Shown here: piece after piece, positions 6,266 through 29,170 of the stretch
How positions within the stretch are numbered: position 1 is the first letter of the stretch
Layout of the letters: the number at the start of each line of letters is the position of its first letter
From: a virus
Reading direction: 5' to 3' (one strand)
DNA length: 64,000 bases
Virus record (IMG/VR): IMGVR_UViG_3300032294_003343
Span: 105,184-169,183 of that record
Notes under the pieces: generated by a model
What the model saw: only the letters and a program-made list of their open reading frames with translations
Told to the model about the DNA's origin: nothing
Databases searched by the model: none
Program-made: the position numbers and the translations under genes

Positions 6266-6852
6266 TGAAAGAATTTATAGAATTTTACGAAAAAGTTAAA
6301 TCAAACAAAACACATATTATTACAATCGATTCTGTAAAGTTTATTGTTCGTGAAATTACTTGGAAAGAAGGCTTACTGATTGATGCAAAATCGTTCAGAA
6401 AGAAAGACAATATTGTTTATCAAAATTCAGAATTTGAAAAAAGAGAAATTTTGAAGATTGCTATTCTGAGAGTATTTGACACCAATACTAATACTGATTA
6501 CATACCTGATTTTGAAACATCATTATTAGAAAAACTTGATTACACAATCATAGAAAAACTTTGGGTCGAATATCAAAATTATCTTTATCTTAACGCCGAT
6601 GAAGCTAATTTTTACTACATTGCAACAAAAAAATATTATAATCCAAATGATACAGAAACATACCCCGTGCCACCCTTAATCGTTGAAATTGATTATATGA
6701 CACGAGGTTTAGTTTCTATGAGTAAAGATGAATTTGCCAATCTTAGTATGAAAGAATTTGAAACAATTCAGTTAATTTTAGCTACTAAGAATGAAGCAAA
6801 GCCAGAAAGTGCAGCAGATCTTGATATTGATTTAGAAAAAGAAATGCGCTAA
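6262..6852 (+). CDS. putative tail assembly chaperone
   Basis: KFIVREITWKE...LLEKLDYTIIEKLW chaperone-like pattern; ATGA overlap with the tube-like gene. Confidence 0.45.
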   Translation: MMKEFIEFYEKVKSNKTHIITIDSVKFIVREITWKEGLLIDAKSFRKKDNIVYQNSEFEKREILKIAILRVFDTNTNTDYIPDFETSLLEKLDYTIIEKLWVEYQNYLYLNADEANFYYIATKKYYNPNDTETYPVPPLIVEIDYMTRGLVSMSKDEFANLSMKEFETIQLILATKNEAKPESAADLDIDLEKEMR

Positions 6853-7658
6853 AGAGTAAATGAAAGTGTGTTTTTGTATTTATTTCTAACCATTTCAGCA
6901 ATTGCAGTTCTGTCCCATTGATGGAATAAAAAATACTTCTCTCCACTTTCATTACAAACATCTGTTCCATCAAAAAATACATCAACATTATCTCTTTTTA
7001 TTGCTTCACCTGTAGCACAAAAAGTATCAGTATATGGATGGCATAGCATAATATTAGGATTTTGTTTAAATTGTCTGTATAGATATCCCAACATAGCCTG
7101 ATCTGGAATTACATAGCTATATCTTCTATTTATTGCTGTGAGAATAAGTGTGCAATAATTTAGAAATGCACTAGTTTTTCCGCCATATGTTCCACCATTG
7201 ATTACATAAGAATCATCATATCTTTCTTTGTTAAAAACTAATGTATTCAAAGTCCATTCATGCCATGCAGCATTACAATCATTTTCTTTTATTTGCATGC
7301 CTTCACAAACTAAAAATAACTCTTTTTCTGGATGGCTTGCCATAAACTCAAATGGATCTTTTTGAATAATTACATCTCGCATGTCCCATTGCATGCAGTA
7401 ATCAAAATCTTTACCATGTTCACAAATCCAATTGTAATATGCAACATATGTCAAGTTGAAAGGATTCATGTTTTCTTCAACTTCTACTATATAATCGTAG
7501 TATTTTCTAAGTTTCTCTATGTTGCTTTGTGAAACATCATGTACACAAATTAGTTTCTTGAAGTTTTTTTGTTTTGCTAAAGATTGAAGATAAATATCAG
7601 CATCAATAGAGTCTAATATTCGATCACCTTGCAAAAAATTAAGCATTAAGTTATTCAT
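6849..7658 (-). CDS. GT-A-like glycosyltransferase
   Basis: WDMRDVIIQKDPF (DxxD), INGGTYGG, DQAML and HQWDR motifs. Confidence 0.6.
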   Translation of the reverse strand: MNNLMLNFLQGDRILDSIDADIYLQSLAKQKNFKKLICVHDVSQSNIEKLRKYYDYIVEVEENMNPFNLTYVAYYNWICEHGKDFDYCMQWDMRDVIIQKDPFEFMASHPEKELFLVCEGMQIKENDCNAAWHEWTLNTLVFNKERYDDSYVINGGTYGGKTSAFLNYCTLILTAINRRYSYVIPDQAMLGYLYRQFKQNPNIMLCHPYTDTFCATGEAIKRDNVDVFFDGTDVCNESGEKYFLFHQWDRTAIAEMVRNKYKNTLSFTL

Positions 7659-7695
7659 AAAAACATTATACTCTTTAGAATCAAAAATTATTTTT

Positions 7696-8529
7696 CTATT
7701 TATTAAAATTACCAGATATCAATAATTCTTCATAAGTTTTCTTAATTCCAGAATGCAATCCAATCAAATTGATATCAAAAAGATGCAGATTATATTCACC
7801 ATAATAACTTAATCCTAAATTTTCTTTTTCAATAATTGTTTCAACATTATAATCAGATAAGTTATTGATAATTGTTGCAATATCAGATAGTTTGTATTTT
7901 TGCTGATATGAACAATTTATAGTTTGTTGTTTTACACTAGCATCGATTGTGAACTTTACAACTTGACATAAATCATCCATATAGAAAAAGTCCATAAATT
8001 TATCTTGATGAATTTGTATAGGTTTTCTATTTATGTAATTTATTATGTTAGCTTTGATCATTCTAGAAGTAAGTTCATCACTATTGAAAACATTAAATAG
8101 TCTTATATTATAAAAACCTTTCAATAAAAGTCCAGATTTAGCAATTAAGTTCTTGCTCATTCCATATGGATCGATTGGATGTGCGCACTTCAAATCAGTT
8201 GAAAAGTCTATGTTATATCTTCGGTCTAATTCTGCACCTGATCCAAATGAAATATATTTATCAAAAGACAAAGAATTATCTAAAATATTTTGATGCATAA
8301 TACAGTTTTCGTAAAAAACAGTATTTTCATCATCTTTAAGTCTACTTCCACCAGTTGTTGCAGTATGAATGACAACATCAAAATACTTGTCTTTAAAAAA
8401 ATGTTTTACTTCTTCTGAATTTAATAAATTAAGATTTGATCTATTAGTCAGAGTCAAATTATAATCTTTAAGATTTTTTGCTAAATTTCTAGCTACAAAT
8501 CCATTTGAACCTGTGATCAGGATATTCAT
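7696..8529 (-). CDS. NAD-dependent epimerase/dehydratase/reductase (SDR; candidate YerF-like)
   Basis: ITGSNGFVA Rossmann motif; YGMSK catalytic YxxxK. Confidence 0.85.
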   Translation of the reverse strand: MNILITGSNGFVARNLAKNLKDYNLTLTNRSNLNLLNSEEVKHFFKDKYFDVVIHTATTGGSRLKDDENTVFYENCIMHQNILDNSLSFDKYISFGSGAELDRRYNIDFSTDLKCAHPIDPYGMSKNLIAKSGLLLKGFYNIRLFNVFNSDELTSRMIKANIINYINRKPIQIHQDKFMDFFYMDDLCQVVKFTIDASVKQQTINCSYQQKYKLSDIATIINNLSDYNVETIIEKENLGLSYYGEYNLHLFDINLIGLHSGIKKTYEELLISGNFNK

Positions 8530-10247
8530 TTAATGTCTTCTAAACTTCCAGGAATAATTTTGCCATTTTCATCAATACCTTTTGCAGATACTTTTGGCTC
8601 ATGAAGTTCCCAAGGATCTGTCATCACTTCAATAATTTCAGGACCTGAATGTGAAAAAGTACTTTGTATTAAGTCAAGTTGATTATTGTTCAATATTTGA
8701 CTGTACTTAATCCCAAAAGCATCAGATATTTTTTTGAAATTTGGAAGAGTAACTCCTGATGAAGGTTCAGAACCAACTAAATTTCCTTTGAAAAATGAAT
8801 TTTGTGTAAGTTTGATTGATAAGTACCCATCATTATTCAGAATAAATATTTTGATTGGTAAATTATGATGAACGACAGTTTGCAATTCTTGCAAGTTCAT
8901 CATAATACTCCCGTCGCCTTCTATGCAAATGATAGTTTTATTACATCCATAATAGGCTCCTATTGCTGCAGGAAGACCATAGCCCATTGGAGCAGTACCT
9001 TCATTAGAAAAAAGCTGTTGATTTGATCGCAGCCTTACAGTCTTGTGAAGAACAACATGAGCTGTTCCATCACTAGTAACTATAATGCTATCATCATCAA
9101 GAAATTCTTCTAACTTTTCAGAAAACACATAGGTACTTACATAGTTTTCTAACTTTCTATGTTTATCTAATACAAGTTGTTCTTCAGATCTTTTGAGCTT
9201 AATATAGTCCAGCCATTCTCTTATATCAAAGTTTGCTTCATATGTTTCAAAAAACTCAAAAAAATTCTTTAAATCTAAATTGATTCCAATGAAAGAATCA
9301 TTTTGATCAAATTTTTTTATTTCAAAATTATCTACATCTATTACTATTTTTTTAGCATTTGGAGCAAACTTGTTAAGATCGTATCCAATTACTTTAGGAT
9401 TTAATCTAGACCCTAAAGATATAATAAAATCAGCTTGTTGAATTATCTGGTTTGATGTTTTTTGCCCTAAGATTCCAATTTTACCAGTGTAAAATTCATA
9501 ATCATAATTGATAATGTCTACTGCTGAATGAGGTCCTGATACAACTGGCAACTGATACTTTTGAATAAAATTCTTAAGCTCATTGATGGTGCCAGAAGAT
9601 TTAATTCCATTGCCTATAACAACAACTGGCTTTGATTTTTGAAAATTATCAAAACAACTTTTCAATAATTCTATTTGTTTTGAATTGTCACTTTCATCAA
9701 ATATTTGAGCAGATTTAAGAGATTCAACATCAATTTCCGAGGCTTGAATATCAAGAGGTACATCCAACCATACGGGTCCTGGTCTCTTATTAACGCATTC
9801 ATTCCATGCAGTTTCCAAATGATATTTAATTTCATTTTTATCATAAACTGTTTCTGCATACTTAGTCATAGTTTTTACTGTATTGACAATATCAAATTCT
9901 TGTTGTCCAATTTGTCTACATCCAGTATTGATTGACATTTGCTCAGTAGGAACTTGACCAGATATAACTATCATTGGGATAGAATCTTGGTAAGCACACA
10001 AAACTCCAGTAATTGCATTTGTTCCTCCTGGACCAGTAGTAACCAAAACACAACCAGGTTTACCAGAAGTTCTGAAATATGCTTCTGCTGCCATTGCACA
10101 GGCTTGTTCATGGTGATTGCAAACGTATCTTAAGCCTGATTTACCAAGTGAATCAATTAAATGCATACAGCCTCCACCGGATACGGTGAAGACTGTGTCT
10201 ATGCCTTTTTCTTTTATAAATTCAAAAATATAGTCTGATAATTTCAT
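8526..10247 (-). CDS. TPP-dependent acetolactate-synthase-family enzyme (YerE-like)
   Basis: HHEQACAMAAEAY, TTGPGGTNA, MGYGLPAAIGA, EGDGS...ILNNDGY TPP motif; sugar-pathway context. Confidence 0.85.
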   Translation of the reverse strand: MKLSDYIFEFIKEKGIDTVFTVSGGGCMHLIDSLGKSGLRYVCNHHEQACAMAAEAYFRTSGKPGCVLVTTGPGGTNAITGVLCAYQDSIPMIVISGQVPTEQMSINTGCRQIGQQEFDIVNTVKTMTKYAETVYDKNEIKYHLETAWNECVNKRPGPVWLDVPLDIQASEIDVESLKSAQIFDESDNSKQIELLKSCFDNFQKSKPVVVIGNGIKSSGTINELKNFIQKYQLPVVSGPHSAVDIINYDYEFYTGKIGILGQKTSNQIIQQADFIISLGSRLNPKVIGYDLNKFAPNAKKIVIDVDNFEIKKFDQNDSFIGINLDLKNFFEFFETYEANFDIREWLDYIKLKRSEEQLVLDKHRKLENYVSTYVFSEKLEEFLDDDSIIVTSDGTAHVVLHKTVRLRSNQQLFSNEGTAPMGYGLPAAIGAYYGCNKTIICIEGDGSIMMNLQELQTVVHHNLPIKIFILNNDGYLSIKLTQNSFFKGNLVGSEPSSGVTLPNFKKISDAFGIKYSQILNNNQLDLIQSTFSHSGPEIIEVMTDPWELHEPKVSAKGIDENGKIIPGSLEDIK

Positions 10248-11317
10248 TGCAAATCATCTTTTGTTAATGGACTACCTTTTTTCAAATCTTTGTTTAGGAT
10301 AAATTCATTATCCATAAATTCTCTAGAAGTGATTTGATTTATGTCTGGTAAATAAGGTACAGCCGCATAAACATCCTTTAATGTTACAGTATACCCTTTT
10401 TTCAAATCCTTATTTATATAAAAGCCTCGGTAAAGAGCAGCTAAATATTCACTCTCTTTTTCATCAATAATTCTTCTTTGTGATGAGGATGTTCCACACA
10501 TTTGGTTTGACTTATGAAATGCTTTGAACCATTCGTCAACTTGATGAGGTAAAGAACAATATTTACTTACTTCTTTCTGCTCATGGTTTTTTGGATAAGG
10601 TATATCAATGTGTCTCTCCCAAGTCCTTACTCCTTTTGCATAAGAAATGAACATTGAAGATTCCCAATCGTGATACTCATGAGTGGAAAAACCAATTGTA
10701 TGATTTGGATATTTAGATTTCAAATAGTCTATTTGATTTAACTCAAGTTCAGAGTCTTCGCTTGGATATTTAGAAACACAATGATTTATAGCTAATGGGA
10801 TTTTTCTATTGTCAAAAAATCTAACGACATCATCAATTTGTTTTTCATTAGCCCCACCAGTAGAGATAATTACAGGTTTCTTAGTACTGGCAATTTTTTG
10901 AAGCAGAATCCAATCATTGATATCTGCACTAGAAACTTTGATAATTGGTAAATCAAATTGCACACACCAATCAACAGACTTTTCGTCAAAAGGTGTAGCC
11001 ATGGGTATGCAATTAGTTTTCTTGATGTATTCGACAAGTTCAGACATTTCGTCAAAACTTAGCTTTGTTTTTAAAGTTTTTTGAATGTATCTTTCTTTTT
11101 TGGGAAGAGTAAGTAAATCTTGATTCTTCCCATTATCAACAAACTCACTATGAATGAAATTTTCAACATCTCTGAATTGCAACTTAATTGCAGCTTTGAT
11201 TTTGTTATTTCGTACAACAGAAGCAAATTCTTTAACTATTTGTTTGCCTCTTGACAAAGAGCCCCAATGGTTATTTGCAAGCTCTAAAACAAATAAATTA
11301 TGGAAAATTTCGTTCAT
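10244..11317 (-). CDS. N-acetylneuraminate synthase family protein (NeuB/SpsE-like)
   Basis: ELANNHWG, ATPFD, KPVIISTGG, HCVSKYP, IGFSTHE, ERH; C-terminal SAF-like segment. Confidence 0.85.
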   Translation of the reverse strand: MNEIFHNLFVLELANNHWGSLSRGKQIVKEFASVVRNNKIKAAIKLQFRDVENFIHSEFVDNGKNQDLLTLPKKERYIQKTLKTKLSFDEMSELVEYIKKTNCIPMATPFDEKSVDWCVQFDLPIIKVSSADINDWILLQKIASTKKPVIISTGGANEKQIDDVVRFFDNRKIPLAINHCVSKYPSEDSELELNQIDYLKSKYPNHTIGFSTHEYHDWESSMFISYAKGVRTWERHIDIPYPKNHEQKEVSKYCSLPHQVDEWFKAFHKSNQMCGTSSSQRRIIDEKESEYLAALYRGFYINKDLKKGYTVTLKDVYAAVPYLPDINQITSREFMDNEFILNKDLKKGSPLTKDDLQ

Positions 11318-11324
11318 AAAAATA

Positions 11325-12221
11325 TTATAGTGTAAATTGAACTAAAGGTAAAGTAATTCCAGTTTGATCAATAACTTCAGACTTGTATCCATATGATTCC
11401 AAAATCTTTGTAAATGTATCAATGTTAAGTACTCCATTTACATTATGAGCTTCCACAATAATTTTGGGTTTATAATGATCAAAAAACTCTTTATTTTCAA
11501 AGATAAAAGATTCTGCACCCTCAATATCACACTTAATAAAATCAACTCTATCAAGGTTATATTTTTGTACGATATCAAAAAGAGTGTAACATTTTACTTC
11601 AACAATCTCGCCTCTTTCTCCAACAAGATCAACTGCTGAAGATCCCATATTTTGTTCAAGCGAAAATTTCAGTGTTCCAGTATGTGTCCAAACTGCAGCA
11701 TTTAATAATTCAATATTCTCTGATTGAAACAACGCAATATTTTTTTGCAAGCATTCGAAGTTTGTAAAATCAGGTTCCATAGCAATAACTTTTCCTGACT
11801 TTCCAACATTATTTGAAAAAGCTATTGACGTTAAGCCAGAATATGCACCAAGGTCAAACACTACATGTCCTTCTGACAAATTAGCAAAATCCAAATATTG
11901 CTCAATTGTTACAAATGGTTCAGCAAGTGATGGGCAAAAAGGCTCAAATAAATCAAATCCCTTGACCTTATGTTGTGCAGGTTTTGAAAAATCTACTACT
12001 TTTTTCCCATCTACAATTTTGTAAGAAACTGAACTAAAATAATAGTCAAACCCATACATTATAGTTTTTATGTAAACATTTTGTCTTTTATTGATAATAA
12101 CGATTTGATCATCATTAATAATGTGGATATTGTCATCTACTTCTACCACTTGCATGTTCAGTTCTAACATTGCTTCATAAACTGTTTTCTTTTTTGGTAA
12201 AACATCAGTTTCAGTTACCAT
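11325..12221 (-). CDS. FkbM-family methyltransferase
   Basis: VFDLGAYSG, AMEPD, DFIKCDIEGAE. Confidence 0.85.
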   Translation of the reverse strand: MVTETDVLPKKKTVYEAMLELNMQVVEVDDNIHIINDDQIVIINKRQNVYIKTIMYGFDYYFSSVSYKIVDGKKVVDFSKPAQHKVKGFDLFEPFCPSLAEPFVTIEQYLDFANLSEGHVVFDLGAYSGLTSIAFSNNVGKSGKVIAMEPDFTNFECLQKNIALFQSENIELLNAAVWTHTGTLKFSLEQNMGSSAVDLVGERGEIVEVKCYTLFDIVQKYNLDRVDFIKCDIEGAESFIFENKEFFDHYKPKIIVEAHNVNGVLNIDTFTKILESYGYKSEVIDQTGITLPLVQFTL

Positions 12222-13168
12222 ATAAAATTCTCCTTATAGTATTTGATAATTTCAATAATTTCATTATCAAAAATACACTTTGGTGTCCATCCAAGATTTC
12301 GCAATTTACTGTCATTGAGTGCATATCTGACATCTTGACCTGGTCTAACAATATTAAAATCGATGTACTCTCTCGGATCTTCAATATGTTTGTCAAAGTA
12401 GATATCTAATATTTTTTCAACTGTTCTTATATTTGATTGTTCAAATCCACCAGCAACATTAAATATCTCATTTTTACAATTGTTCTCAATTATAGTCAAA
12501 ACAGCGCTGGCGGTATCTTTAGCATGCAACCAATTTCTTACAGGTTTGCCTTCTGCATGTAAAGGTATTCTTCTGCCAAGTTTAAGGAATTTACACGCTT
12601 TTGGGATAAGTTTTTCTACATATTGACCTATGCCATAATTATTTGTTGGTCTGATTATAATATAGGGTATGTTGTAAGTTCTTGACCATGCTGTAATCAA
12701 TTGATCTGCAGCAGCCTTGGTTGCTGAATAAGGGTTAGATGGCTTAAGAACGTCAGTTTCAATATGTTCACCATCTGATATATCACCATAAACTTCATCA
12801 GTGCTAAAATGAATAAATGTAGGAACAATATATCCCTCTTTTTGATAAGCCCTCAAAAGTTCAAGAATGTTATAAACACCATCAATGTTTGAATGTAAAA
12901 AATCATCACTTTTACGTATTGAATTATCTACATGTGTTTCGGCTGCAGTATTGATAAAATAATCGCAGTCAACCAATCTATCTAAATCACATATATCTTT
13001 TTCTTCAAACTTAAACTTTGGATTAGATTTAAATTCTTCCAATTTAGAAATTCTTGATGCATATGTACATTTATCAATTCCGAAAACATACCAGCCTTTA
13101 TCAAGACAAGCTTGAGTTACATATGACCCAATAAATCCTAAGCATCCTGTCACGTATACTACTTTCAT
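12215..13168 (-). CDS. NDP-glucose 4,6-dehydratase (RmlB/RfbB-like)
   Basis: VTGCLGFIGS, AAETHVDNS, STDEVYG, NPYSATKAAAD, RPGQDVRYA; start at the ATGA overlap (13168). Confidence 0.9.
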   Translation of the reverse strand: MKVVYVTGCLGFIGSYVTQACLDKGWYVFGIDKCTYASRISKLEEFKSNPKFKFEEKDICDLDRLVDCDYFINTAAETHVDNSIRKSDDFLHSNIDGVYNILELLRAYQKEGYIVPTFIHFSTDEVYGDISDGEHIETDVLKPSNPYSATKAAADQLITAWSRTYNIPYIIIRPTNNYGIGQYVEKLIPKACKFLKLGRRIPLHAEGKPVRNWLHAKDTASAVLTIIENNCKNEIFNVAGGFEQSNIRTVEKILDIYFDKHIEDPREYIDFNIVRPGQDVRYALNDSKLRNLGWTPKCIFDNEIIEIIKYYKENFIW

Positions 13169-14040
13169 GATGTTTTCTTTTTCTTTTTGCAAGCTAGCAT
13201 ATATAAGTTTGTGAAATGAACATAATCTAAAGCTGCCTGATAATTCAAAACTTGCTCCTTGATAATTTCAAGTCCACAAGATTCAATTAAGCAATGCAAA
13301 GATTTATTAGAATAAAAATTTATATGTTCATGCCAATGTTTTTTAGTTTTATATAGATCTAATGACTCATTATTTTTTGCCATAAGATCTTCACAAGGAA
13401 CCTCTAGATATAAAACCGTATTTTCGCTCATGGATTCAATTATATCCATAAGTAATTGCTTTGGATAAGAGACATGTTCAAGAACATTGCTACAAACTAC
13501 CAAATCATAAGCATGATTTTTAATCATAGATGGTTCTATTTTTTCACAATTTGGAAACAATGTTTTGTCTGTCCATTCATAGATGTAAACTTTGCTAGCT
13601 GTTTCTAAAAATGGAGTGTTTTTACCATCATCTCCTCCCCAATCCAATACGAGTGGTTTAATGCTGATAAAGTCAAGAAAACTTTCAATTTCTTTTTTAT
13701 ATCCAATAGCTACATCCAAATTTTTCTGTTTATCTTTATAACCTGGTTCATAAGAATCTCTGACATCTATATATTTTGATTCTCTGTAATTCTCATATAA
13801 GTTTTTTAATTCATGATCTTCAAATCTGAAATCACTGAATAAAAAACCACAATCTTGGCATTGCACAGACTTGCAAGGCATATAAATAGTGCCATTTGGT
13901 ACTCCATACAAATTCCATGTGTCATCTATTTCAAATAAATCATAATCGAATATCATTTTTGACATAAATGGCATCAAAATAGCAGAAGATTTTTCTAGTT
14001 TTTTACTTTCACAACAAGGGCAGGATAAAGCTAAATTCAT
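13165..14040 (-). CDS. class I SAM-dependent methyltransferase with N-terminal Cys motifs
   Basis: CPCC...CQDC, VLDWGGDDG, NVLEHV, HEHINFYS. Confidence 0.8.
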   Translation of the reverse strand: MNLALSCPCCESKKLEKSSAILMPFMSKMIFDYDLFEIDDTWNLYGVPNGTIYMPCKSVQCQDCGFLFSDFRFEDHELKNLYENYRESKYIDVRDSYEPGYKDKQKNLDVAIGYKKEIESFLDFISIKPLVLDWGGDDGKNTPFLETASKVYIYEWTDKTLFPNCEKIEPSMIKNHAYDLVVCSNVLEHVSYPKQLLMDIIESMSENTVLYLEVPCEDLMAKNNESLDLYKTKKHWHEHINFYSNKSLHCLIESCGLEIIKEQVLNYQAALDYVHFTNLYMLACKKKKKTS

Positions 14041-14167
14041 TTTGCATTCTCAAAAAAATATTATACATTCATAATTAACAAACGTAAAAACTTGACCAAC
14101 ATAATCTCTATAGTTATTGAAAATTGATTTTTTTATAAGTAGGTATAATTAAATTAGGATTATTTAT

Positions 14168-15507: not shown

Positions 15508-15514
15508 GAATATT

Positions 15515-16534: not shown

Positions 16535-16568
16535 ACTGTTAGTATAATGAGAATAAGGTAAAAAATAT

Positions 16569-19275: not shown

Positions 19276-19301
19276 GCATATAATTATTTAGAGGTTTTAA
19301 T

Positions 19302-21045: not shown

Positions 21046-21929
21046 AATCTTTAGTCAAAAATCATTTGCTTGAAAAAAAGGGCAAAGTTTATGGGCAATG
21101 TTTATCAGCTGTTGGATGGGTAGGCGGAACATTGCCAGAACTCTTTGAAGAAGATGGCATGGTTGATTTATCAATGGCTGATGTTGCTAATGGTGCAATA
21201 ACTGTTGGTGCTGCACTTGCAAACACAAGACCAATTTATGTCGTCCGATATCAAGGATTTCAATGGTACAACTGTGTTTCAATATTAAATTACGCAGCTA
21301 AAAGTAAGGATATTTGGAAAAGATCTTGTCCTGTATTAGTGAGAAGTGTTGCTATGGAAGGTGCAATTGGACCAGTTGCAGGTTCATCTCATCACTCTTT
21401 ATTTTATAGAATGCCAGGAATAAAAATTGTTTCTCCTATGACTCCAAATGAATACGAACATGCATACAATGAATTTATGAATGATGATGTTCCATATTAT
21501 TTTTCAGAACATAGAAAAAGTTTTGATAATGACAAAGACTTAGAAAACATCATTTATGAAGACGCTGACGTTGTGCTGATTCCATTTTCAGTGACAAGAT
21601 TTTCAGCTCAAAAAGCATCTGAAATTTTATTCAATCAAGGTATTAAATGCAATGTCTTGCACCAATTGTGGATAAAGCCATTGAAGTTTGATGATAATTT
21701 TTATAAAAATGCTTCTAACTGCAAATATGGTTGCATTGTGCTAGATGACGATTATACGTCAGGCATAATTGAATCTGTGGCATACAAATTAAGTAAAAAA
21801 ATAAATAAGCCTATAGAATGTATGGGTTTAGATGATAAAACTGCTGGTTTTGCTAAAGAACATGATAATTTGCCTCCAGATGAACATCAAATAGTAAAAA
21901 AAGTGATTGAAATGATTGGTAAAAGATAA
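21018..21929 (+). CDS. TPP-dependent dehydrogenase E1 beta/transketolase C-terminal-like subunit (copy 1)
   Basis: GAALANTRPI, MPGIKIVSPMTP, FSEHR, WIKPL. Confidence 0.8.
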   Translation: MAITLRETIKSLVKNHLLEKKGKVYGQCLSAVGWVGGTLPELFEEDGMVDLSMADVANGAITVGAALANTRPIYVVRYQGFQWYNCVSILNYAAKSKDIWKRSCPVLVRSVAMEGAIGPVAGSSHHSLFYRMPGIKIVSPMTPNEYEHAYNEFMNDDVPYYFSEHRKSFDNDKDLENIIYEDADVVLIPFSVTRFSAQKASEILFNQGIKCNVLHQLWIKPLKFDDNFYKNASNCKYGCIVLDDDYTSGIIESVAYKLSKKINKPIECMGLDDKTAGFAKEHDNLPPDEHQIVKKVIEMIGKR

Positions 21930-21938
21930 AATAAAGTT

Positions 21939-22934
21939 ATGAAAATATTAATTATTACCACAAAATGGGCTGCTGGTACAATGAAAAATGTATATTGTGC
22001 TACGCATAGATCTTTAGTTAGACCAGCTCAAGAGTTATTTAAGAATAATCCAGATGTAGATTTAGCAATCGAATATATCGAAGTAAATGAAATTTGGTCT
22101 GCAAAGCAGTTAAATGAGAGATTGCTCAGAAATGACTTTGATATTTGTGTTTTTTCGCCTTTTGAGAGCATAGTTCCATCTTTAGATACTACAAAAAAAC
22201 TTGGTAAAAAATTGTTCATTTGTGTATGGGATCAACTCAATGGAGCAACAAATAACAGAGCAGTTAACATGCGATTGTTCTTAAAAAATCCATACAATAA
22301 TGGTGTTGTCAATTTTGAACATTCTATGTGTGCATACTCGCAATATTGCAACATTTTAGTAGGCGGAAACTTATATGGACAAAAGTTTCCTAATATTTAC
22401 GCAGTTTACGAACCCATGGATACTACCGTTTTGTATCCTGTGCCAGAAGAAGAAAAATCACATGAATTAGCTTTCATTGGATCACTTTATGAATTTGAAA
22501 GACAGTGGTTTGTCAATAAACTTTTAGAGAAAAAATTTCCATTGCATGTGCTAGGTGGCAAAGGTGAATCAGAACAAAAACTCTCTTATAATGATTGGGC
22601 AAAGGTTAATAGAGAAACAAAAATCTCACTGAATTTCAATGGTAATTTTTGCATGGGCTGCCTTAAAGGAAGAGTGTGGGAAATTGCTGCTTGCAACAAT
22701 CTTATGATAGCAACTATACCTGATGTATACAAATTTCCCAATGGATCATGGTTTACAGAGGATGTTCACTATGTAAGTATTGATAAAGTCAATTACTTAG
22801 ATAAGATTAGATATTACCTTAATAATCCACAAAAAAGAATAGCTATTGCAAATGCTATGCATGAACACTGGAAGAATAATTACACAGCTGAAATTTGGTG
22901 GAATAATATATTCAATTGGTCCAAAAATGTTTAA
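21939..22934 (+). CDS. glycosyltransferase (GT-B, Glyco_trans_1_2/CgeB-like), paralog 2
   Basis: KKLGKKLF..VWD, TKISLNF, KGRVWEIAAC, KIRYYLNNP. Confidence 0.7.
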   Translation: MKILIITTKWAAGTMKNVYCATHRSLVRPAQELFKNNPDVDLAIEYIEVNEIWSAKQLNERLLRNDFDICVFSPFESIVPSLDTTKKLGKKLFICVWDQLNGATNNRAVNMRLFLKNPYNNGVVNFEHSMCAYSQYCNILVGGNLYGQKFPNIYAVYEPMDTTVLYPVPEEEKSHELAFIGSLYEFERQWFVNKLLEKKFPLHVLGGKGESEQKLSYNDWAKVNRETKISLNFNGNFCMGCLKGRVWEIAACNNLMIATIPDVYKFPNGSWFTEDVHYVSIDKVNYLDKIRYYLNNPQKRIAIANAMHEHWKNNYTAEIWWNNIFNWSKNV

Positions 22935-22997
22935 TTATAATATTTAATAATTATTGATAACTCGGATTTCCAACCAGACTTAAGAGACATATATAAA

Positions 22998-23603
22998 ATG
23001 AAAAACTATACTGAGCAAGAATTGATCGATTTTGAAACTGATATTGCAAACTGTTTCAACAATTTAATGATAAAGGCTGTAATCCATTTATCAAATGGAA
23101 ATGAAAAACAACTTATTGATATATTCAAAAATATCAATGAAGATGACTGGGTATTCTGTTCATGGAGATCACACTATCAGTGTTTATTGAAAGGTGTTCC
23201 TAGCGAAAAACTTAAGCAAGACATTATAGACGGTAAATCTATGGCTTTAAATTACCCAGAATATAAAGTGTATTCTTCTGCAATTGTAACAGGCAATATA
23301 CCAATTTCAGTTGGAGTGGCATTAGATATTAAGCGCAAAAATTTATCCAACCACGTTTGGTGTTTTGTTGGCGACATGACTTCAGAAACTGGCACATTTT
23401 TTGAAAATTGGAAGTTTGCTGTCAATCACGATTTACCAATCACCTTTGTTATAGAAGATAATAATAAATCTGTGTGTTCTGACACTAGAAAAGTATGGAA
23501 CACTGAAAAGTTATTCTTTGAAGAACCTAAACCAAAAGTTATATTCTTCAAATATGAATCAAAATATCCACATGCTGGAGCTGGAAAAAGGATACAGTTT
23601 TAA
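22998..23603 (+). CDS. compact TPP-dependent E1 alpha-like subunit (copy 2)
   Basis: IHLSNGNE, WRSHY, VGDM...IEDNN, YPHAG. Confidence 0.8.
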   Translation: MKNYTEQELIDFETDIANCFNNLMIKAVIHLSNGNEKQLIDIFKNINEDDWVFCSWRSHYQCLLKGVPSEKLKQDIIDGKSMALNYPEYKVYSSAIVTGNIPISVGVALDIKRKNLSNHVWCFVGDMTSETGTFFENWKFAVNHDLPITFVIEDNNKSVCSDTRKVWNTEKLFFEEPKPKVIFFKYESKYPHAGAGKRIQF

Positions 23604-24139
23604 TGAAATACGCAGATGAATTAAAAAGATCAATGGATTGGCTTGCTTCTAAAGAAGATACATTATTCTTGGGACAGGCAGTAGAATATCCAGGCACAGC
23701 GATGTCAAACACATTGAAAGATGTAAATCCAGAAAAATTATTAGAAGTACCAGTAGCTGAAGACATGCAAATGGGAATGACTCTAGGTTTAGCTTTAAAT
23801 GGCACTTTTCCTATTTCTTTTTTCCCCAGATGGAATTTCTTAATATTAGCAGCAAATCAATTAGTAAACCACATTGATAAAATCAAGATTATGTCTGATG
23901 GAAATTTTAAACCAAAAATTATCATTAGAACATCTATTGGTGCACAAAGACCACTTCACCCACAGCATCAACATATAGCTGATTACACAGCTGGTTTCAA
24001 GGCTATGTGTGACTTTGTTGATATCATCAGATTAGAAGAAGCACATCAAATTTTTGATGCTTATAAATATGCATATGAAAGAACTGATGGTAGACCAACA
24101 ATCTTGGTTGAATGGGGAGATTTCCTTAACGAAAAATGA
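23603..24139 (+). CDS. compact E1 beta/transketolase pyrimidine-binding subunit (copy 2, lacks C-terminal domain)
   Basis: FLGQAV, EVPVAEDMQMG, NQLVNH, HPQHQH. Confidence 0.8.
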   Translation: MKYADELKRSMDWLASKEDTLFLGQAVEYPGTAMSNTLKDVNPEKLLEVPVAEDMQMGMTLGLALNGTFPISFFPRWNFLILAANQLVNHIDKIKIMSDGNFKPKIIIRTSIGAQRPLHPQHQHIADYTAGFKAMCDFVDIIRLEEAHQIFDAYKYAYERTDGRPTILVEWGDFLNEK

Positions 24140-25107
24140 AAGTTTTAATCGTTGCTGATCATTTTAGAAACATTGAATCTCATGCTTATGCCTTTTTAGT
24201 AAGAAGCTTTGAGGGTGCTTTTATTGGCAATAATGAATATGAATTGCTGGTAAGACATATTGCACCTAATGAAATTTGGTCAGCTGAAGCATTGTCTAAA
24301 GTTTTATTAGAAACAGATTTTGATATTGCTGTTGTAAGTCCACTTTGGCACGTTCATGTTCAGCTTCATGTTGCCAAAAAGTTAGGCAAAAAACTTTTTA
24401 TTCAGTATTGGGATACACATTCTCCAATACATACTTCTTCTAGACTTACAAATTTTAAGATATTCTTGAAATCTATAACAGAATGCGGACATACATTTGT
24501 TCACACATGCAAAGAATATTCACAATATTGTAATGTATTAATAGCTGACTATGGAGATGGAGAATTTGAACCAAACATTTATTGTGTACCAACTCCTATA
24601 GATCCAAGAAAATTTTATCCAGTTCCTGAAGATGAAAAACAATATGATCTTTTATTTTTTGGACAGCTTTCTACCAATGAAAGAAAATTTTTTCTACCTG
24701 GCATTAAAAAAGCCAACCTGCCAATTACCATAAAAGGTGTTGACTCACAGCCAGATTGGGATGAATTTGCTGAAATTAACAGAAAAGCAAAAATTAGTTT
24801 AGTTCTTAATGCAAAAGCTTCAGGTGAGGGCCAAAGAAAAGGTAAAATTTATGAGGCAGCTGCTTGTAAAAATTTAGCTATTGTAACTCATCCCGAGGCC
24901 TACTATGATAGAGGAAAGCACATTTTTAAAGAAAATGTTCACTATGTTTCAATTGATAAACAAAACTATCGAGATAAAATTAAATACTATTTAGATAATC
25001 CTGAAGAAAGATTGAAGATTTCACAACAGTTATATGATTATTACATAGAAAATTACTCTGCTAAAGCATTTTGGTATAATATATTTAAGTACTCGAAAGA
25101 TAAATAA
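24136..25107 (+). CDS. glycosyltransferase (GT-B, Glyco_trans_1_2/CgeB-like), paralog 3
   Basis: KKLGKKLF..YWD, AKISL, KGKIYEAAAC, KIKYYLDNPEER. Confidence 0.7.
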   Translation: MKVLIVADHFRNIESHAYAFLVRSFEGAFIGNNEYELLVRHIAPNEIWSAEALSKVLLETDFDIAVVSPLWHVHVQLHVAKKLGKKLFIQYWDTHSPIHTSSRLTNFKIFLKSITECGHTFVHTCKEYSQYCNVLIADYGDGEFEPNIYCVPTPIDPRKFYPVPEDEKQYDLLFFGQLSTNERKFFLPGIKKANLPITIKGVDSQPDWDEFAEINRKAKISLVLNAKASGEGQRKGKIYEAAACKNLAIVTHPEAYYDRGKHIFKENVHYVSIDKQNYRDKIKYYLDNPEERLKISQQLYDYYIENYSAKAFWYNIFKYSKDK

Positions 25108-25108
25108 A

Positions 25109-26278
25109 ATGAATAAATTTTTCCTACCATTGATGAATGATAATATCGACAAAGAAGATGTAAATTCAGTGATTGAGTTTTTATCTCAAGATAATATTCC
25201 AAAGCTGACTAATGGACCAAAAGTTGTGGAATTTGAAAATGCATGGGGACAATGGTTAGGTACAAAATACAATTTGTTTGTAAATTCAGGTGCTTCTGCT
25301 AATGAATTAACAATGTTAGCTTTAGCTCACATTGTTGGTGAAGGCGAAATTATTGTCCCACCCTTAACTTGGATATCAGACATTTCTTCAGTTCTTTTTG
25401 CTGGTCATAAACTTGTATTTGTTGATGTCAATTTTACTAACTTATCATTTGATATAGATAAACTTAAAGAAGCAATTACACCAAATACAAAAGCCATATT
25501 TTTAACACACGTTTTGGGAATCAATGGCTTAACAGATGAGCTTATTGATATTTGCGAAAAGAATAATATCTTATTAATTGAAGATGTTTGTGAGTCCCAT
25601 GGTACAACCTTCCAAGGCTGCAAGGTTGGTAATTTTGGGTTTGCCAGTAATTTTAGTTTTTATTTTGCTCACCATATGTCAACAATTGAAGGTGGGATGA
25701 TTAGTACAAACAATTGGGAATTTTATCAAGTTTGTCGTGCCCTAAGATCTCATGGGATGACTAGAGAAATGACAAGTGATTCTATGAAAGTTTCTATTGC
25801 AATGGATAACCCTGATTTAAATCCTGATTTTATATTTTTACGTCCAGCTCACAATTTTAGAAGTACTGAAATTAATGCGGTTATAGGTTTATCGCAATTG
25901 CCAAAACTTGATGCAAAAAATCAAGAAAGAATTGATAATTTTGATTTATTTATATCGAATTTGGATTCTGAAAAGTATCATGTTGCTCTAAACACTGAAG
26001 GTAATTGTAATTACGCTTTTATTGTAATTCTAAAAGATGCTGATTTTTCAAAAAGAAATGAATTAGAGAAAAAATTACAAAACAACGGCATAGAATTTAG
26101 AAGAGGATTATCTGGTGGTGGTAATCAAATGAGACAGCCTTTTTTCAAGTCTGTTTACACTGATTTTTCAAATTTTCCAAATATTGAACATATTCATAAT
26201 TATTCATGGTATATCGGAAATTATCCAGGCTTAGAAAAAGAAAAAATTATAAAACTTCTTGAGGTTTTGAATGGCTAA
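25109..26278 (+). CDS. DegT/DnrJ-family PLP enzyme, ColD-like (NDP-4-keto-6-deoxyhexose 3-dehydratase)
   Basis: FVNSGASAN, EDVCESHG, FYFAHHMSTIEGG with His at the usual PLP-Lys position; no Fe-S Cys motif. Confidence 0.75.
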   Translation: MNKFFLPLMNDNIDKEDVNSVIEFLSQDNIPKLTNGPKVVEFENAWGQWLGTKYNLFVNSGASANELTMLALAHIVGEGEIIVPPLTWISDISSVLFAGHKLVFVDVNFTNLSFDIDKLKEAITPNTKAIFLTHVLGINGLTDELIDICEKNNILLIEDVCESHGTTFQGCKVGNFGFASNFSFYFAHHMSTIEGGMISTNNWEFYQVCRALRSHGMTREMTSDSMKVSIAMDNPDLNPDFIFLRPAHNFRSTEINAVIGLSQLPKLDAKNQERIDNFDLFISNLDSEKYHVALNTEGNCNYAFIVILKDADFSKRNELEKKLQNNGIEFRRGLSGGGNQMRQPFFKSVYTDFSNFPNIEHIHNYSWYIGNYPGLEKEKIIKLLEVLNG

Positions 26279-26780
26279 GGTTGAAGCTTTATCCAATGTT
26301 ATAATCAAACAAGTCGATAGCTTCCATGATCACAGAGGGCAGCTTTTTACTTTATGGGAAAAATCTGACTTTGACTTTTTAAATTTCAACCATGATAAAG
26401 TTGCAATTTCGCACAAAAATGTACTAAGGGGACTTCATACTGATAAATCTTGGAAGCTTATCACTTGCATTCATGGATCAATACAGTTAGTAGTTGCAAA
26501 TATTGATAAAAACAGTCAGGAATATTTAGACCATATAGATATCATCATAAATTCTGATGACAAAATTAAAACTTTTGTTCTTGTTCCACCTGGTTATGTA
26601 AATGGGCATCTCGTACTAAGTGATGAAGCTGTGTTTTATTACAAATGGTGTTACGAAGGTGAATACCCAGACATGAAAGATCAGTTGTCAGTAAATTGGG
26701 CAGATCCAAAGTTAGACATAAATTGGCTTACAGATGACCCAATACTTTCTGACAGAGATAAAAAGACCCGATTATTATGA
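26271..26780 (+). CDS. dTDP-4-dehydrorhamnose 3,5-epimerase family (RmlC-like)
   Basis: FHDHRG, VLRGLH, KLITC, PPGYVNGH, ILSDRD. Confidence 0.9.
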   Translation: MAKVEALSNVIIKQVDSFHDHRGQLFTLWEKSDFDFLNFNHDKVAISHKNVLRGLHTDKSWKLITCIHGSIQLVVANIDKNSQEYLDHIDIIINSDDKIKTFVLVPPGYVNGHLVLSDEAVFYYKWCYEGEYPDMKDQLSVNWADPKLDINWLTDDPILSDRDKKTRLL

Positions 26781-27547
26781 AAGAACTATATAAAGATATC
26801 AAAATATTAGTAATTGGCGACTCTTGTACTGATATTTTCACCTATGGAAATGTACTAAGACTTGCTCCAGAAGGGCCAGCTCCTGTTTTCAACCCTTTAT
26901 TTACTACAAATAATGGTGGTATGGCATTAAACGTAGCTGCAAATATTTCTGCTATTGGAGCTAATGTCAAGCTAATTACCCAAGATGAAAATATAACTAA
27001 AACTAGATATATAGACCAAAGAACTAATTCACTATTATTGAGGATAGATGAAAATGATACATCATCTAAAATTTCAAAACATATACTCAATAATTTAATA
27101 GATAATGTATATGAAGATGTCAAATATGATGCAATTATTGTAAGTGATTATTGTAAGGGTTTTTTATCAGAAGAAGATATAGAAACTATAGCTACTAGGA
27201 ATTCGAAAGTATTTTTAGATACAAAAAAGATCTTAGGCGAATGGTGCAATGATGTAACATTCATAAAAATTAATCATACTGAATATGATAAGACAAAGCA
27301 TACTATCGATTATTTAGGTTTGTACGGGAAGATGATTATAACAAGATCTGATGAAGGTTGTGAGTATGATCATTCAATTTTTCCAGTTGAAAAAGTAAAT
27401 ATCAAAGATGTTTCCGGCGCAGGAGATACATTTATTTCTGGACTTGTATGTGAATTTATCAGAACAAATAATATTGTTGAGGCGATAAAGTTTGCCCAAG
27501 AATGTGCTACTCAAGTAGTTCAAAAGAAGGGAGTTTGTACTATATGA
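26777..27547 (+). CDS. heptose-7-phosphate kinase-like PfkB carbohydrate kinase (HldE/RfaE domain I)
   Basis: LVIGD, RLAPEGPAPV, GGMALNVAAN, SDYCKG, DVSGAGDTF. Confidence 0.85.
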   Translation: MKELYKDIKILVIGDSCTDIFTYGNVLRLAPEGPAPVFNPLFTTNNGGMALNVAANISAIGANVKLITQDENITKTRYIDQRTNSLLLRIDENDTSSKISKHILNNLIDNVYEDVKYDAIIVSDYCKGFLSEEDIETIATRNSKVFLDTKKILGEWCNDVTFIKINHTEYDKTKHTIDYLGLYGKMIITRSDEGCEYDHSIFPVEKVNIKDVSGAGDTFISGLVCEFIRTNNIVEAIKFAQECATQVVQKKGVCTI

Positions 27548-27834
27548 ACATGAAAGAATATTATGCAATGTACTTAACTTTGCATCAAAACAAAATTTGC
27601 AGACGATTGCATGTCTTAGGACAGTTTATGACAATTATGTGGGTTGTAGGCTGTTTTCGTTTTGAATATTATTGGTTTTTATTATTGACACCATTTATTG
27701 TTTATCCGTTTGCTTGGTCTGGTCATTATTTCTTTGAGAAAAATAAGCCAGCTGCATTTAAGGATCCAGTTAAGGCTAAAATTAGCGATTGGATTATGCT
27801 ATTTGATATTCTTCGAGGCAAAGTACCATTCTAA
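27544..27834 (+). CDS. DUF962/Mpo1-like small membrane protein
   Basis: YLTLHQN..CRRLHVLG, FAWSGHYFFEKNKPAAF; start at ATGA overlap. Confidence 0.8.
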   Translation: MNMKEYYAMYLTLHQNKICRRLHVLGQFMTIMWVVGCFRFEYYWFLLLTPFIVYPFAWSGHYFFEKNKPAAFKDPVKAKISDWIMLFDILRGKVPF

Positions 27835-27861
27835 AAAAAAGAGGCTTGTAGCCTCTTTTTT
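27833..27861. terminator. bidirectional intrinsic terminator between convergent genes
   Basis: A-run + GAGGCT-TGT-AGCCTC + T-run. Confidence 0.8.
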
Positions 27862-29170
27862 ATTTGTCAAAAAAACTATCTAGAACTTCACCTATATAAT
27901 CAATTTGTTCTTCTGTTATAACTGGAGACGTTCCTAAAAAGAAAGTATCAGTGGTGACTTTTTTAGCAACTGGAAAGTCATTAAGATCCATATCGGCAAC
28001 TAAATGACTATAAGCTGGTTGCATCAAAATGTTTCCAGCAAAATATGGTCTAGTTTGAATTTTTTTAGATTCTAAATACTGACAAATATCACTTCTCTTA
28101 AAAGGTGCGTTATCTTTGACAGTTATTGGGAATGCAAACCAATTTACATCTGCATTCTTTTGTGCTACTGGAAGAACAAAATATTCTTCATACTTAGAAA
28201 ACTTTTCTGTTAATAATTTGTGATTTCTTTGACGTAAATTTTTAATTTCAGCAAGTTTATCAATTTGAGCTAACAACATACTGGCTTGAACTTCGATTGG
28301 TTTTAAGTTATAACCAATTTCTTCATAGACATATTTATGGTCAAATACTTCTCCTGGCATACTAGGTAGCCATTCTGAAAATCTTTGATTGCAAGCTCCA
28401 CATTCTGTAATATTTTGTTTACCAATACAAAAACATCCACGACCCCAATCACGAATAGAACGGATCACTCTTTCTAAATTATCATCATTACAAACAACTA
28501 ACCCGCCTTCTCCACAAGTAATATGATGAGCAGGATAGAAAGAACAAGAAGCCATAGTGCCGAAGCTGCCCAAAGGATTACCGTCGAATGATGAACCTAA
28601 AGCATCACAACAATCCTCAAGTAATATTAATCCATAATGATCAATAATATCTAATAATCTGTACATGTCAGGAGGATTTCCTAACACATGAGCAAATGTT
28701 ATGATTTTTATTTCTGGATCTGCCTGTAAAGTAGCTTCTACATCATCTAAATTTAAGTTTAAACCATCTAAAGAAATATCTACAAAAACAGGCTTGAAAC
28801 CACATTGAAAAATCGGGTTTATAGTAGTTGGAAAACCAGCAATAGGAGTAAGTACTTTAGTTCCTTCAGGTAAATTAAGATATCTTTTTGACTTCAAAGC
28901 TGACATCATGAGAAGATTTGAGCTACTACCTGAGTTAGTCAATAAAGCGTGGTTTTTACCGAATAGAGAGGCTAATTTTCTCTCTGCTTTATATGCTTCA
29001 GCTCCTAAAACTAACCAACCATCTAACAACGTAGAGACTGATCTAACAATTTCAGTATGATCAAAATAAGGACCAGCATAATGAACATGATCTTTGCCAG
29101 GTCTCCATTTTTTATTTGGTTCGCTTTTGATATAATCTTCAACTATTTTGAGCAATTCTTCTTTAGTCAT
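27860..29170 (-). CDS. rfbH: CDP-4-keto-6-deoxyglucose 3-dehydrase (RfbH/DdhC, E1)
   Basis: NSGSSSNL, EDCCDALGS, SFYPAHHITCGEGG, RDWGRGCFC...CGAC Fe-S motif, DHKYVY. Confidence 0.88.
   Translation of the reverse strand: MTKEELLKIVEDYIKSEPNKKWRPGKDHVHYAGPYFDHTEIVRSVSTLLDGWLVLGAEAYKAERKLASLFGKNHALLTNSGSSSNLLMMSALKSKRYLNLPEGTKVLTPIAGFPTTINPIFQCGFKPVFVDISLDGLNLNLDDVEATLQADPEIKIITFAHVLGNPPDMYRLLDIIDHYGLILLEDCCDALGSSFDGNPLGSFGTMASCSFYPAHHITCGEGGLVVCNDDNLERVIRSIRDWGRGCFCIGKQNITECGACNQRFSEWLPSMPGEVFDHKYVYEEIGYNLKPIEVQASMLLAQIDKLAEIKNLRQRNHKLLTEKFSKYEEYFVLPVAQKNADVNWFAFPITVKDNAPFKRSDICQYLESKKIQTRPYFAGNILMQPAYSHLVADMDLNDFPVAKKVTTDTFFLGTSPVITEEQIDYIGEVLDSFFDK

Follow-up and report, generated by a model that had tools for sequence, protein, structure and literature searches.

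To which acceptor would a tailed phage attach the products of a sugar-biosynthesis locus that lies between its capsid and tail genes? This question is raised by a stretch of 64,000 nucleotides (positions 105,184–169,183 of IMG/VR record IMGVR_UViG_3300032294_003343; the whole stretch is called the window in what follows), in which a 22-kb glycan island occupies positions 6849–29170. The window is the final 64 kb of a single viral contig of 169,183 bp (record G000; the other G and L labels denote IMG/VR relatives and matched loci), for which CheckV gave a completeness of 47%. The contig is a fragment of an uncultured huge freshwater phage resembling Bacillus phage G. A preliminary description of the window had proposed that the island glycosylates the virion, with remodelling of the host surface as the alternative. 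It was observed that, in a clade with near-identical capsids, the site of the island is fixed and its content is replaced by whole modules. We give a probability of roughly 0.4 to the reading in which the acceptor is the phage's own virion proteins, the candidates being a decoration-like protein, the tube of the tail and the capsid.

A sugar-enzyme island inside the virion module

The interval contains 25 contiguous, tightly packed open reading frames (ORFs), and about 20 of these matched families of sugar chemistry in Pfam or NCBIfam, in keeping with the earlier count of about 25 sugar genes. Its placement between tail and capsid genes, also described before, was confirmed, the gene for the major capsid protein (MCP; 29245–30099) lying on one side and an ORF with a tail-tube fold (5027–6265) on the other. 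The ORFs are organised in two divergent arms around an intergenic region of 127 bp. Stop and start codons of neighbours overlap, and the G+C content of the island (0.29–0.34) is the same as that of the backbone.

The encoded enzymes comprise three short-chain dehydrogenases/reductases (SDRs), two DegT-family proteins, one NeuB-family synthase, one thiamine diphosphate (ThDP) enzyme resembling acetolactate synthase (ALS), two E1alpha/E1beta-like ThDP pairs, a B12-binding radical S-adenosylmethionine (SAM) enzyme, one FkbM and one class-I methyltransferase, and RmlC-like, PfkB-like, DJ-1/PfpI and Mpo1-like proteins. To these are added four glycosyltransferases (GTs), the number given in the preliminary description, three of them paralogous GT-B enzymes with PF13524 and one a GT-A enzyme. 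None of the sugar enzymes for which an equivalog NCBIfam model exists reached its cut-off, and the island enzymes are therefore divergent versions. No paralogues of island genes were found elsewhere in the 169-kb record, and in megablast neither the island nor the head module matched any GenBank phage.

Fixed site and variable content among relatives

A search of IMG/VR with the capsid protein gave 156 relatives. In those with a capsid 96–100% identical, the junction span was taken from the capsid gene to the homologue of a conserved tail-side gene (6262–6852). This span was 22.4 kb here, 20.8 kb in G007, at least 18.7 kb in G006, 17.7 kb in G001, 13.6 kb in G008, 12.5 kb in G005, 8.2 kb in L017, 7.7 kb in G002, 1.0 kb in G003 and 0.9 kb in L013. 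The site was occupied in every close relative examined that has an island.

Certain modules recur at this site: the E1 dehydrase adjoining the capsid gene; a cassette of dehydratase, ThDP enzyme, SDR and GT-A at the tail side; a 133-aa protein with an SDR and a GT-B; and the short E1alpha/beta pair with aminotransferase, cupin, kinase and Mpo1-like protein. Among the relatives these are reshuffled, duplicated or absent. The ALS-like ThDP enzyme travels with the 4,6-dehydratase and an SDR in G001, G005, G007, L014, L017 and L110, the 133-aa protein is 81–94% identical in G001, G006, G007, L009 and L029, and the short ThDP pair is 69–81% identical in G001, G007, L008 and L012. Three GT-A copies or fragments were seen inside the 20.8-kb island of G007 (among them C1:38811–40198 and 45829–46635).

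At the same site G002 carries an unrelated set, consisting of a nucleotidyltransferase-like protein, a methyltransferase, a RuBisCO-like protein, a HAD-nucleotidyltransferase fusion, a GT92/GT2-like GT and a GHMP kinase, and this set ends with the same GT-A family. The RuBisCO-like protein (PF00016, E 6e-33; L105:2698–3873) is an unusual partner for phage sugar activation. In L013 a lone GT-A gene lies between the capsid and tail genes. G003 (300 kb, 84% complete) showed no SDR, GT-B, GT-A or PF00483 match anywhere in its record, and since all four marker queries failed there, the glycan system is taken to be dispensable. The preliminary description had suggested, as a check, that the position of the island should be conserved and its content hypervariable in related genomes; such a pattern is indeed seen, with lengths of 0.9–22 kb and content that is modular and partly unrelated.

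The MCP of these phages is under extreme purifying selection: the gene of L001 (10001–10852) differs from that of the window at 84/852 nt, 70 of them at third positions, with 0 amino-acid changes. Because of these 84 differences the genomes must have truly diverged, so that the turnover is not a quirk of assembly. Neighbouring head genes show just 59–92% identity in the same relatives.

A search of GTDB genomes with the E1 gene gave five matches, four on short contigs of metagenome-assembled genomes (MAGs). L112 (JBBARF010000157.1, 7.4 kb, labelled as a Bacteriovoracaceae MAG) was considered as a cellular donor or host and rejected as a mis-binned piece of the phage clade, its capsid being 99.6% identical and its head genes 84–90%. 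L110, labelled as a Terrimicrobiaceae MAG, carries an E1-dehydratase-ThDP-SDR glycan cassette.

The glycosyltransferases

By sequence, the GT-A protein had no match in Pfam, PHROGs or NCBIfam. Its AlphaFold2 (AF2) model, built from 40 homologues (pLDDT 91.6), has a GT-A fold. The nearest solved structures in Foldseek were the retaining GT6 alpha-1,3-galactosyltransferase, the ABO transferases and the GT8 glycogenin (E about 1e-8, TM 0.57), while the nearest predicted viral structures were GTs of phages and giant viruses. All 128 homologues lack both a name and a Pfam domain, and viral sequences make up 84–100% of the Atlas clusters. The gene is retained at the tail-side edge in G001, G002, G005, G007, L013 and L017. 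The longer forms that a fusion search brought up had either a methyltransferase or a GT61 domain attached, and are uninformative on the acceptor.

All 43 homologues of GT-B paralogue 1 carry PF13524. The largest sit on contigs reaching 380 kb, a size also seen in this phage clade. No relative came up for this GT-B in the PDB, whether sequence or profile was used. Both GT families appear, on these comparisons, to be lineage-resident and to have no close cellular homologue.

Predicted sugar chemistry

The 436-aa DegT-family protein adjoining the capsid gene matched 3bcx/3bb8, the Yersinia CDP-6-deoxy-L-threo-D-glycero-4-hexulose-3-dehydrase E1, over its full length (E 3e-95). The histidine of its AHH motif, in place of the aminotransferase lysine, and its Cys cluster are conserved. 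Together with the 4,6-dehydratase, this enzyme supports the formation of 6-deoxy and 3,6-dideoxy sugars. Amination, epimerisation, reduction, O-methylation and possibly C-methylation of sugars are likewise supported by the predicted enzyme set. The radical SAM enzyme is a candidate C-methylase or rearranging enzyme.

YerE acts in the formation of yersiniose, and E1alpha/beta pairs act in that of two-carbon-branched antibiotic sugars. From such known pathways and from the gene context, ThDP-dependent C2 branching would be expected, possibly by up to three routes. The ALS-like enzyme, whose best ALS match was 336 bits against a cut-off of 738 bits, is a candidate branch-forming (YerE-like) enzyme by its company. 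The NeuB-family protein scored 125 bits for PseI and 114 bits for NeuB, the cut-offs being 340 and 400. The weak cupin ORF, as listed from a TTG start, overlaps the DJ-1/PfpI gene by 92 nt, which gives it a hydrophobic N-terminus; the real start is probably further downstream and this N-terminus probably not real.

The enzymes could be ordered as follows, the order of steps and the branched product being inferred. The host would supply a nucleoside diphosphate (NDP)-hexose, which the 4,6-dehydratase and the E1-type 3-dehydrase would convert to a keto-deoxy sugar. The ThDP enzymes would extend or branch this sugar, the aminotransferase would aminate it, epimerases and reductases would reshape it, and the three methyl-transfer-type enzymes would methylate it. 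Finally, the four soluble, phage-specific GTs (three GT-B and one GT-A) would transfer the products in the cytoplasm.

Sugar nucleotidyltransferases (PF00483, PF12804, PF02348) were absent from the 47%-complete G000, and PF00483 also from G001. As none was found, the NDP-sugars would come from the host or from an unrecognised enzyme. An E1-type dehydrase normally requires an E3 reductase; no domain of this ferredoxin-NADP-reductase-like kind was present among the island ORFs, to which the scan was confined. The CMP-sugar synthetase family PF02348 was absent from G000, G001, G002, G005, G006 and G007, and a hydrolysing 2-epimerase did not appear in the Pfam scans of island ORFs. The earlier proposal of an exotic glycan that is branched, dideoxy, methylated and nonulosonic is therefore upheld in part: dideoxy, branched and methylated sugars are plausible from the enzyme set, but a nonulosonic acid is not, because the divergent NeuB-family synthase stands alone, with no CMP-transferase found and no 2-epimerase in the island scans.

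Membrane and initiating functions

Transmembrane segments were screened by Kyte–Doolittle hydropathy (hydrophobic stretches of 19 residues), and an ORF of at least 150 aa with at least two such segments was called polytopic. Among the island proteins no segment was observed except at the probably mis-called N-terminus of the weak cupin ORF. The GTs, said before to lack an obvious membrane anchor, showed no transmembrane segment in any of the four. No polytopic ORF of the size of a flippase, polymerase, ligase, ABC permease or WecA was present in the 169-kb record. The sole polytopic ORF in G001 (358 kb, 89% complete, capsid 99% identical, island of 17.7 kb) encoded a protein of 1803 aa with three segments. 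The initiating transferase family PF02397 was absent from G000, G001, G005, G006 and G007. Hence the statement that Wzx/Wzy, an ABC exporter, an initiating transferase and a ligase are missing from the window holds also for the 169-kb record and for G001. Nine tRNA genes were seen in G001 in two groups (C1:133255–137251 and 172658–176198) and zero in the 169-kb record, the latter being consistent with about half a genome.

The acceptor of the glycan

If virion proteins are the acceptor, each strain would have its own glycan coat. In favour of this reading, the island lies inside the virion module, between capsid and tail-tube-fold genes, and is fixed there in close relatives, and its minimal form is the lone GT-A at the capsid/tail junction of L013. 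Neither a polytopic membrane protein of flippase size nor PF02397 or PF00483 was found in the 169-kb record or in G001. Neither GT family shows a close cellular homologue. The fold relatives of the GT-A include GTs of giant viruses and PLOD-like protein GTs. Giant viruses use clade-specific sugar clusters for their virion fibrils. Mycobacteriophages are reported to glycosylate capsid and tail-tube subunits (Freeman 2023, cited in PMC12619734 and PMC11256854).

Several points weigh against the virion. Soluble GTs are equally typical of O-unit and lipopolysaccharide (LPS)-core assembly, GT8, one of the two families that the GT-A fold resembles most, includes LPS-core transferases, and the implied sugar types are classic O-antigen constituents. 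The preliminary description had argued from the lack of membrane anchors to a cytoplasmic acceptor, and this step fails: missing anchors do not discriminate between virion and host because O-unit and LPS-core GTs at the inner membrane face are also normally soluble or peripheral. The MCP has no extra C-terminal tail compared with that of phage G, and does not co-vary with the island, being 96–100% identical with or without it. Co-variation of individual capsid residues with island presence was considered and rejected, as the substitutions are conservative and follow phylogeny. A terminator-like hairpin stands between the capsid gene and the island. In distant relatives (capsid below 90% identity), SDR/GT clusters are common and lie mostly far from the capsid gene. 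Finally, the position of the island is not diagnostic, since the GT genes of mycobacteriophages lie outside the structural module (PMC11256854).

A fuller proposal would be that a widespread clade of huge freshwater phages makes strain-specific glycan coats from a fixed 'serotype locus' at which whole sugar modules are swapped, among them routes to branched 3,6-dideoxy sugars and the module of G002 with its RuBisCO-like protein, and that the conserved GT-A attaches the products to virion proteins. Taken as one joint claim, this is tentative and has less than even odds.

Remodelling of the host envelope is a substantial competitor, quite possible without being probable. The phage GTs would add sugars to lipid-linked intermediates of the host at the inner membrane face (the undecaprenyl-diphosphate O-unit, lipid A-core or a capsule precursor), and the host would export them. 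A changed cell surface in a long infection might block superinfection or keep progeny from sticking to debris. Sugars of the 3,6-dideoxy, branched and methylated kinds are typical O-antigen components, and the E1 dehydrase is related over its full length to the enzyme of the Yersinia O-antigen. O-units and LPS cores are normally built by soluble enzymes of the GT-B and GT8-like GT-A kinds, and the hypervariability mirrors that of bacterial O-antigen loci. The clusters of distant relatives outside the virion module also fit, and large cyanomyoviruses with 22–24 comparable genes (P-SSM2, S-SCSM1) are read in this way in the literature (PMC12801897), although that reading itself was never demonstrated. 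On the other hand, neither the phage nor the near-complete G001 has an initiating transferase, flippase, polymerase or ligase, and the usually selective Wzx/Wzy of the host would need to accept foreign units. Borrowing from host O-antigen loci would predict close cellular homologues of the GTs, which are lacking, and the close relatives keep the island at one place within the virion module.

Another soluble acceptor is unlikely. It could be a small molecule, a non-structural or host protein, or the pathway could serve as a sink or diverter of host NDP-sugars. The ThDP pairs, B12 radical SAM enzyme, methyltransferases and DegT proteins also belong to the deoxysugar toolkit of natural products, and the 133-aa and 306-aa proteins of the island, which have no family, could be accommodated. 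However, family scans of the island ORFs revealed no aglycone-synthesis genes for polyketide synthase, nonribosomal peptide synthetase or terpene pathways, and this reading accounts poorly for four GTs and for the constant location within the virion module.

DNA, also named as an acceptor in the preliminary description, is now disfavoured and has very little probability. Here the GTs would glycosylate modified phage bases against restriction, as in T4, RB69 and the 5-hydroxymethylcytosine (5hmC) and 5-hydroxycytosine (5hoC) systems. Both GT-A and GT-B enzymes of phages have been found to attach a variety of glycans to DNA (bioRxiv 10.1101/2023.12.21.572611; PMC13326640), and the ESM Atlas places the GT-B near clusters with PF09198, the T4 glucosyltransferase family, as a lead only. 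Yet all three GT-Bs gave no Pfam match to PF09198 at E up to 10. Both the hmC and 5hoC routes require a thymidylate-synthase-family enzyme (PMC13326640). This family (PF00303, ThyA), which covers the hydroxymethylases and hydroxylases sought, was absent from G000–G004, four relatives among them being 84–100% complete, in a search whose control matched in 10/14 genomes; the DNA acceptor is disfavoured because of its absence from these five records. No TET/JBP-type dioxygenase matched, but the control of that search matched nowhere either. The island lies in the virion module and not beside genes of replication or nucleotide metabolism.

An artefact, in which misassembly or binning has joined a bacterial LPS locus to phage DNA and for which the 'provirus' label given by IMG/VR to some related records might speak, can be rejected, because both junctions recur on single contigs in different samples (here and in G001, G005, G007 and L017) and the island G+C equals that of the backbone, the tight packing with overlapping stop and start codons pointing the same way. 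The capsid-side junction occurs also in L001, L003 and L005, from three metagenomes, and the misassembled LPS locus that the preliminary description had named as a refutation finds no support. The 'provirus' label is carried by G005, G013, G018, G022 and G025, which have the appearance of lytic huge phages; the caller of provirus boundaries may have been misled by sugar islands of bacterial character.

Flanking genes and features of the locus

Coordinates of the island ORFs and of the flanking features are given in Table 1. Among cultured phages the MCP is nearest to that of Bacillus phage G, with no cyanophage in the organism tally of the search; it has 284 aa, that of phage G 283 aa, and its C-terminus is neither extended nor rich in Ser/Thr. 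Its capsid fold family, phrog_2522, is distantly common to large actinobacteriophages. The portal and large terminase genes lie beyond the MCP gene. In phage G the 'capsid decoration' gene gp26 stands directly upstream of the MCP gene; the 216-aa protein in this position here has no detectable sequence similarity to gp26, and is 59–92% identical among relatives whose MCP is 96–100% identical.

The tail-tube-fold ORF, modelled at a low pLDDT of 54.8, scored Z 15.1 in VIA-align against the tail tube of P74-26 (8ed0) and Z 12.7 against T5 pb6, and its other fold matches were all tube/Hcp folds. Its double tail-tube domain resembles the fused tubes known from P74-26 and T5, and neither a sheath nor a tape-measure gene was seen beside it within the window. 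PHROG searches with the tail-side genes and 10 further upstream ORFs gave almost nothing, and PDB sequence searches with 707–3157 and 3141–4640 gave no matches.

The G+C-rich hairpin between the MCP gene stop and the E1 gene start, as read from the sequence, resembles an intrinsic terminator that would act in both directions, on the MCP gene and on the island; several other head genes are likewise followed by such hairpins. A sigma-70 promoter scan found 118 sites against 107.5 expected from shuffles, which is no better. No k-mer was common to the 32 intergenic regions, and the divergent region between the arms had no promoter motif common to other phage genes.

Table 1. Positions in the window of the island ORFs and of flanking genes and elements.
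Feature	Coordinates	Strand	Basis or remark
Tandem tail-tube-fold protein, candidate acceptor	5027..6265	+	Fold search; low-confidence model
Conserved tail-side gene	6262..6852		Homologue is the tail-side reference for junction spans
GT-A fold glycosyltransferase	6849..7658	-	AF2 and Foldseek; tail-proximal island edge
SDR, RmlD/GDP-fucose-synthase-like ketoreductase	7696..8529	-	PF01370 E 3e-19, RmlD_sub_bind; NCBIfam only below cut-offs
ALS-like ThDP enzyme	8526..10247	-	TPP_enzyme_N/M/C domains
NeuB-family phosphoenolpyruvate-condensing synthase, divergent	10244..11317	-	PF03102 E 6e-39
FkbM-family methyltransferase	11325..12221	-	PF05050 E 4e-18; TIGR01444 101 bits, above cut-off
NDP-hexose 4,6-dehydratase, dTDP-glucose type	12215..13192	-	TIGR01181 302 bits (cut-off 365) against 63 bits for CDP type
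Class-I SAM methyltransferase	13165..14040	-	PF13489 E 3e-14
Divergent intergenic region	14041..14167	.	Between island arms, read from sequence
Conserved 133-aa protein	14168..14569	+	No family match; always paired with following SDR
SDR epimerase/dehydratase	14569..15507	+	PF01370 E 7e-35
GT-B glycosyltransferase paralogue 1	15515..16534	+	PF13524 E 3e-15
B12-binding radical SAM enzyme	16569..18077	+	PF02310 and PF04055; best NCBIfam HpnJ 125 bits, below cut-off
DJ-1/PfpI family protein	18078..18620	+	PF01965 E 5e-33
Weak cupin (mannose-6-phosphate-isomerase C-terminal-like)	18529..19275	+	PF01050 E 2e-4, below cut-off
306-aa protein	19302..20222	+	No Pfam or NCBIfam family
ThDP E1alpha-like and E1beta-like pair, long form	20212..21929	+	PF00676; PF02779 and PF02780
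GT-B glycosyltransferase paralogue 2	21939..22934	+	PF13524 E 1e-14; 35% identity to paralogue 1
ThDP E1alpha-like and E1beta-like pair, short form	22998..24139	+	PF00676 E 3e-15; PF02779 E 9e-9
GT-B glycosyltransferase paralogue 3	24136..25107	+	PF13524 E 5e-10
DegT/DnrJ/EryC1 sugar aminotransferase	25109..26278	+	PF01041 E 6e-69
RmlC-like 3,5-epimerase or ketoisomerase cupin	26271..26780	+	PF00908 E 5e-32
PfkB-like kinase	26777..27547	+	PF00294 E 2e-17, C-terminal residues 121-254 only
Mpo1-like (DUF962) small protein	27502..27834	+	PF06127 E 1e-28
Pyridoxamine phosphate/[2Fe-2S] NDP-4-keto-6-deoxyhexose 3-dehydrase (E1/RfbH type)	27860..29170	-	PDB 3bcx/3bb8
Perfect 9-bp hairpin with A-run and T-run flanks	29196..29222	.	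Read from sequence
Major capsid protein (MCP)	29245..30099	-	phrog_2522 E 4e-68; 48% identity to phage G gp27
216-aa protein, candidate acceptor	30133..30783	-	Position of phage G capsid-decoration gene, synteny only

Significance

Phage glycan clusters came to light with the first genomes of cyanomyoviruses and, to our knowledge, the acceptor was never shown. The present clade is an unusually clean natural experiment, with capsids that differ by 0–12 amino acids, a fixed site, and variants with none, a lone GT-A or 22 kb, and this natural series makes the long-open question of the acceptor testable. If the virion is the acceptor, there would be tailed phages with variable glycan serotypes, with consequences for adsorption, for grazing and decay in lakes, and for the way in which the immune system recognises therapeutic phages. 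A locus that does act as a serotype locus would match, on the viral side, the O-antigen diversity of bacteria, and no earlier system of this kind in tailed phages would have had a full sugar-synthesis pathway. If instead the host surface is the acceptor, this would be the largest known investment of a lytic phage in receptor masking. In each case the enzymes are new sources of rare-sugar chemistry, with an E1 dehydrase that lacks its usual reductase in the island, three ThDP units and a B12 radical SAM enzyme.

Comparison with known systems

Like a bacterial Wzx/Wzy or ABC-dependent O-antigen or capsule locus, the island clusters sugar genes with GTs, but the initiating and membrane genes of such loci were not found. 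The likeness to the Yersinia pathway of CDP-3,6-dideoxyhexose and yersiniose (RfbF-RfbG-RfbH/E1-E3, YerE, YerF) lies in the E1 homologue, which keeps the His and Cys ligands, and in the 4,6-dehydratase, ALS-like ThDP enzyme and SDR reductase carried here as a cassette. Unlike in Yersinia, no cytidylyltransferase was found, the island has no E3 reductase, and the dehydratase scores as the dTDP and not the CDP type.

The clusters of giant viruses (Mimivirus/Megavirinae fibrils, chlorovirus capsid) are alike in joining the synthesis of rare bacterial-type sugars to soluble GTs. Their content varies between clades and the virion is the acceptor. The GT-A fold described here matches giant-virus GTs, but those viruses have eukaryotic hosts and unrelated virion proteins.

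Virion glycosylation in the mycobacteriophages Che8, Corndog and Myrna (Freeman et al. 2023, through citing papers) is similar in its phage-encoded soluble GTs, which act in the cytoplasm, the acceptors there being capsid and tail-tube subunits. That system is reportedly dispensable for growth. These phages differ in having few GTs and no 20-kb sugar-synthesis pathway, with GT genes far from the structural genes (PMC11256854), and their acceptor is a C-terminal region (PMC12619734), of which no counterpart was seen on the present capsid protein.

In gene content the island also resembles the LPS/cell-wall clusters of cyanomyoviruses (P-SSM2, S-SCSM1, S-SCSM2R), which are large lytic phages with twenty-odd NDP-sugar and GT genes; these clusters come without any described export machinery, and what they do is unproven (PMC12801897). 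Their backbone is T4-like, whereas the capsid here is phage-G-like and of an unrelated lineage. The site here is fixed at the capsid/tail-tube junction, with module replacement among near-identical capsids, and the chemistry adds the E1 3-dehydrase, three ThDP units and the B12 radical SAM enzyme. Large phage glycan clusters (cyanomyoviruses), phage virion glycosylation (mycobacteriophages) and clade-specific clusters of giant viruses are already known. What is new here is the lineage, that of phage-G-like huge freshwater phages; the fixed, 'serotype-like' capsid/tail-tube locus with replacement of whole modules; the conserved, previously unannotated GT-A family at the island edge; and this combination of enzymes.

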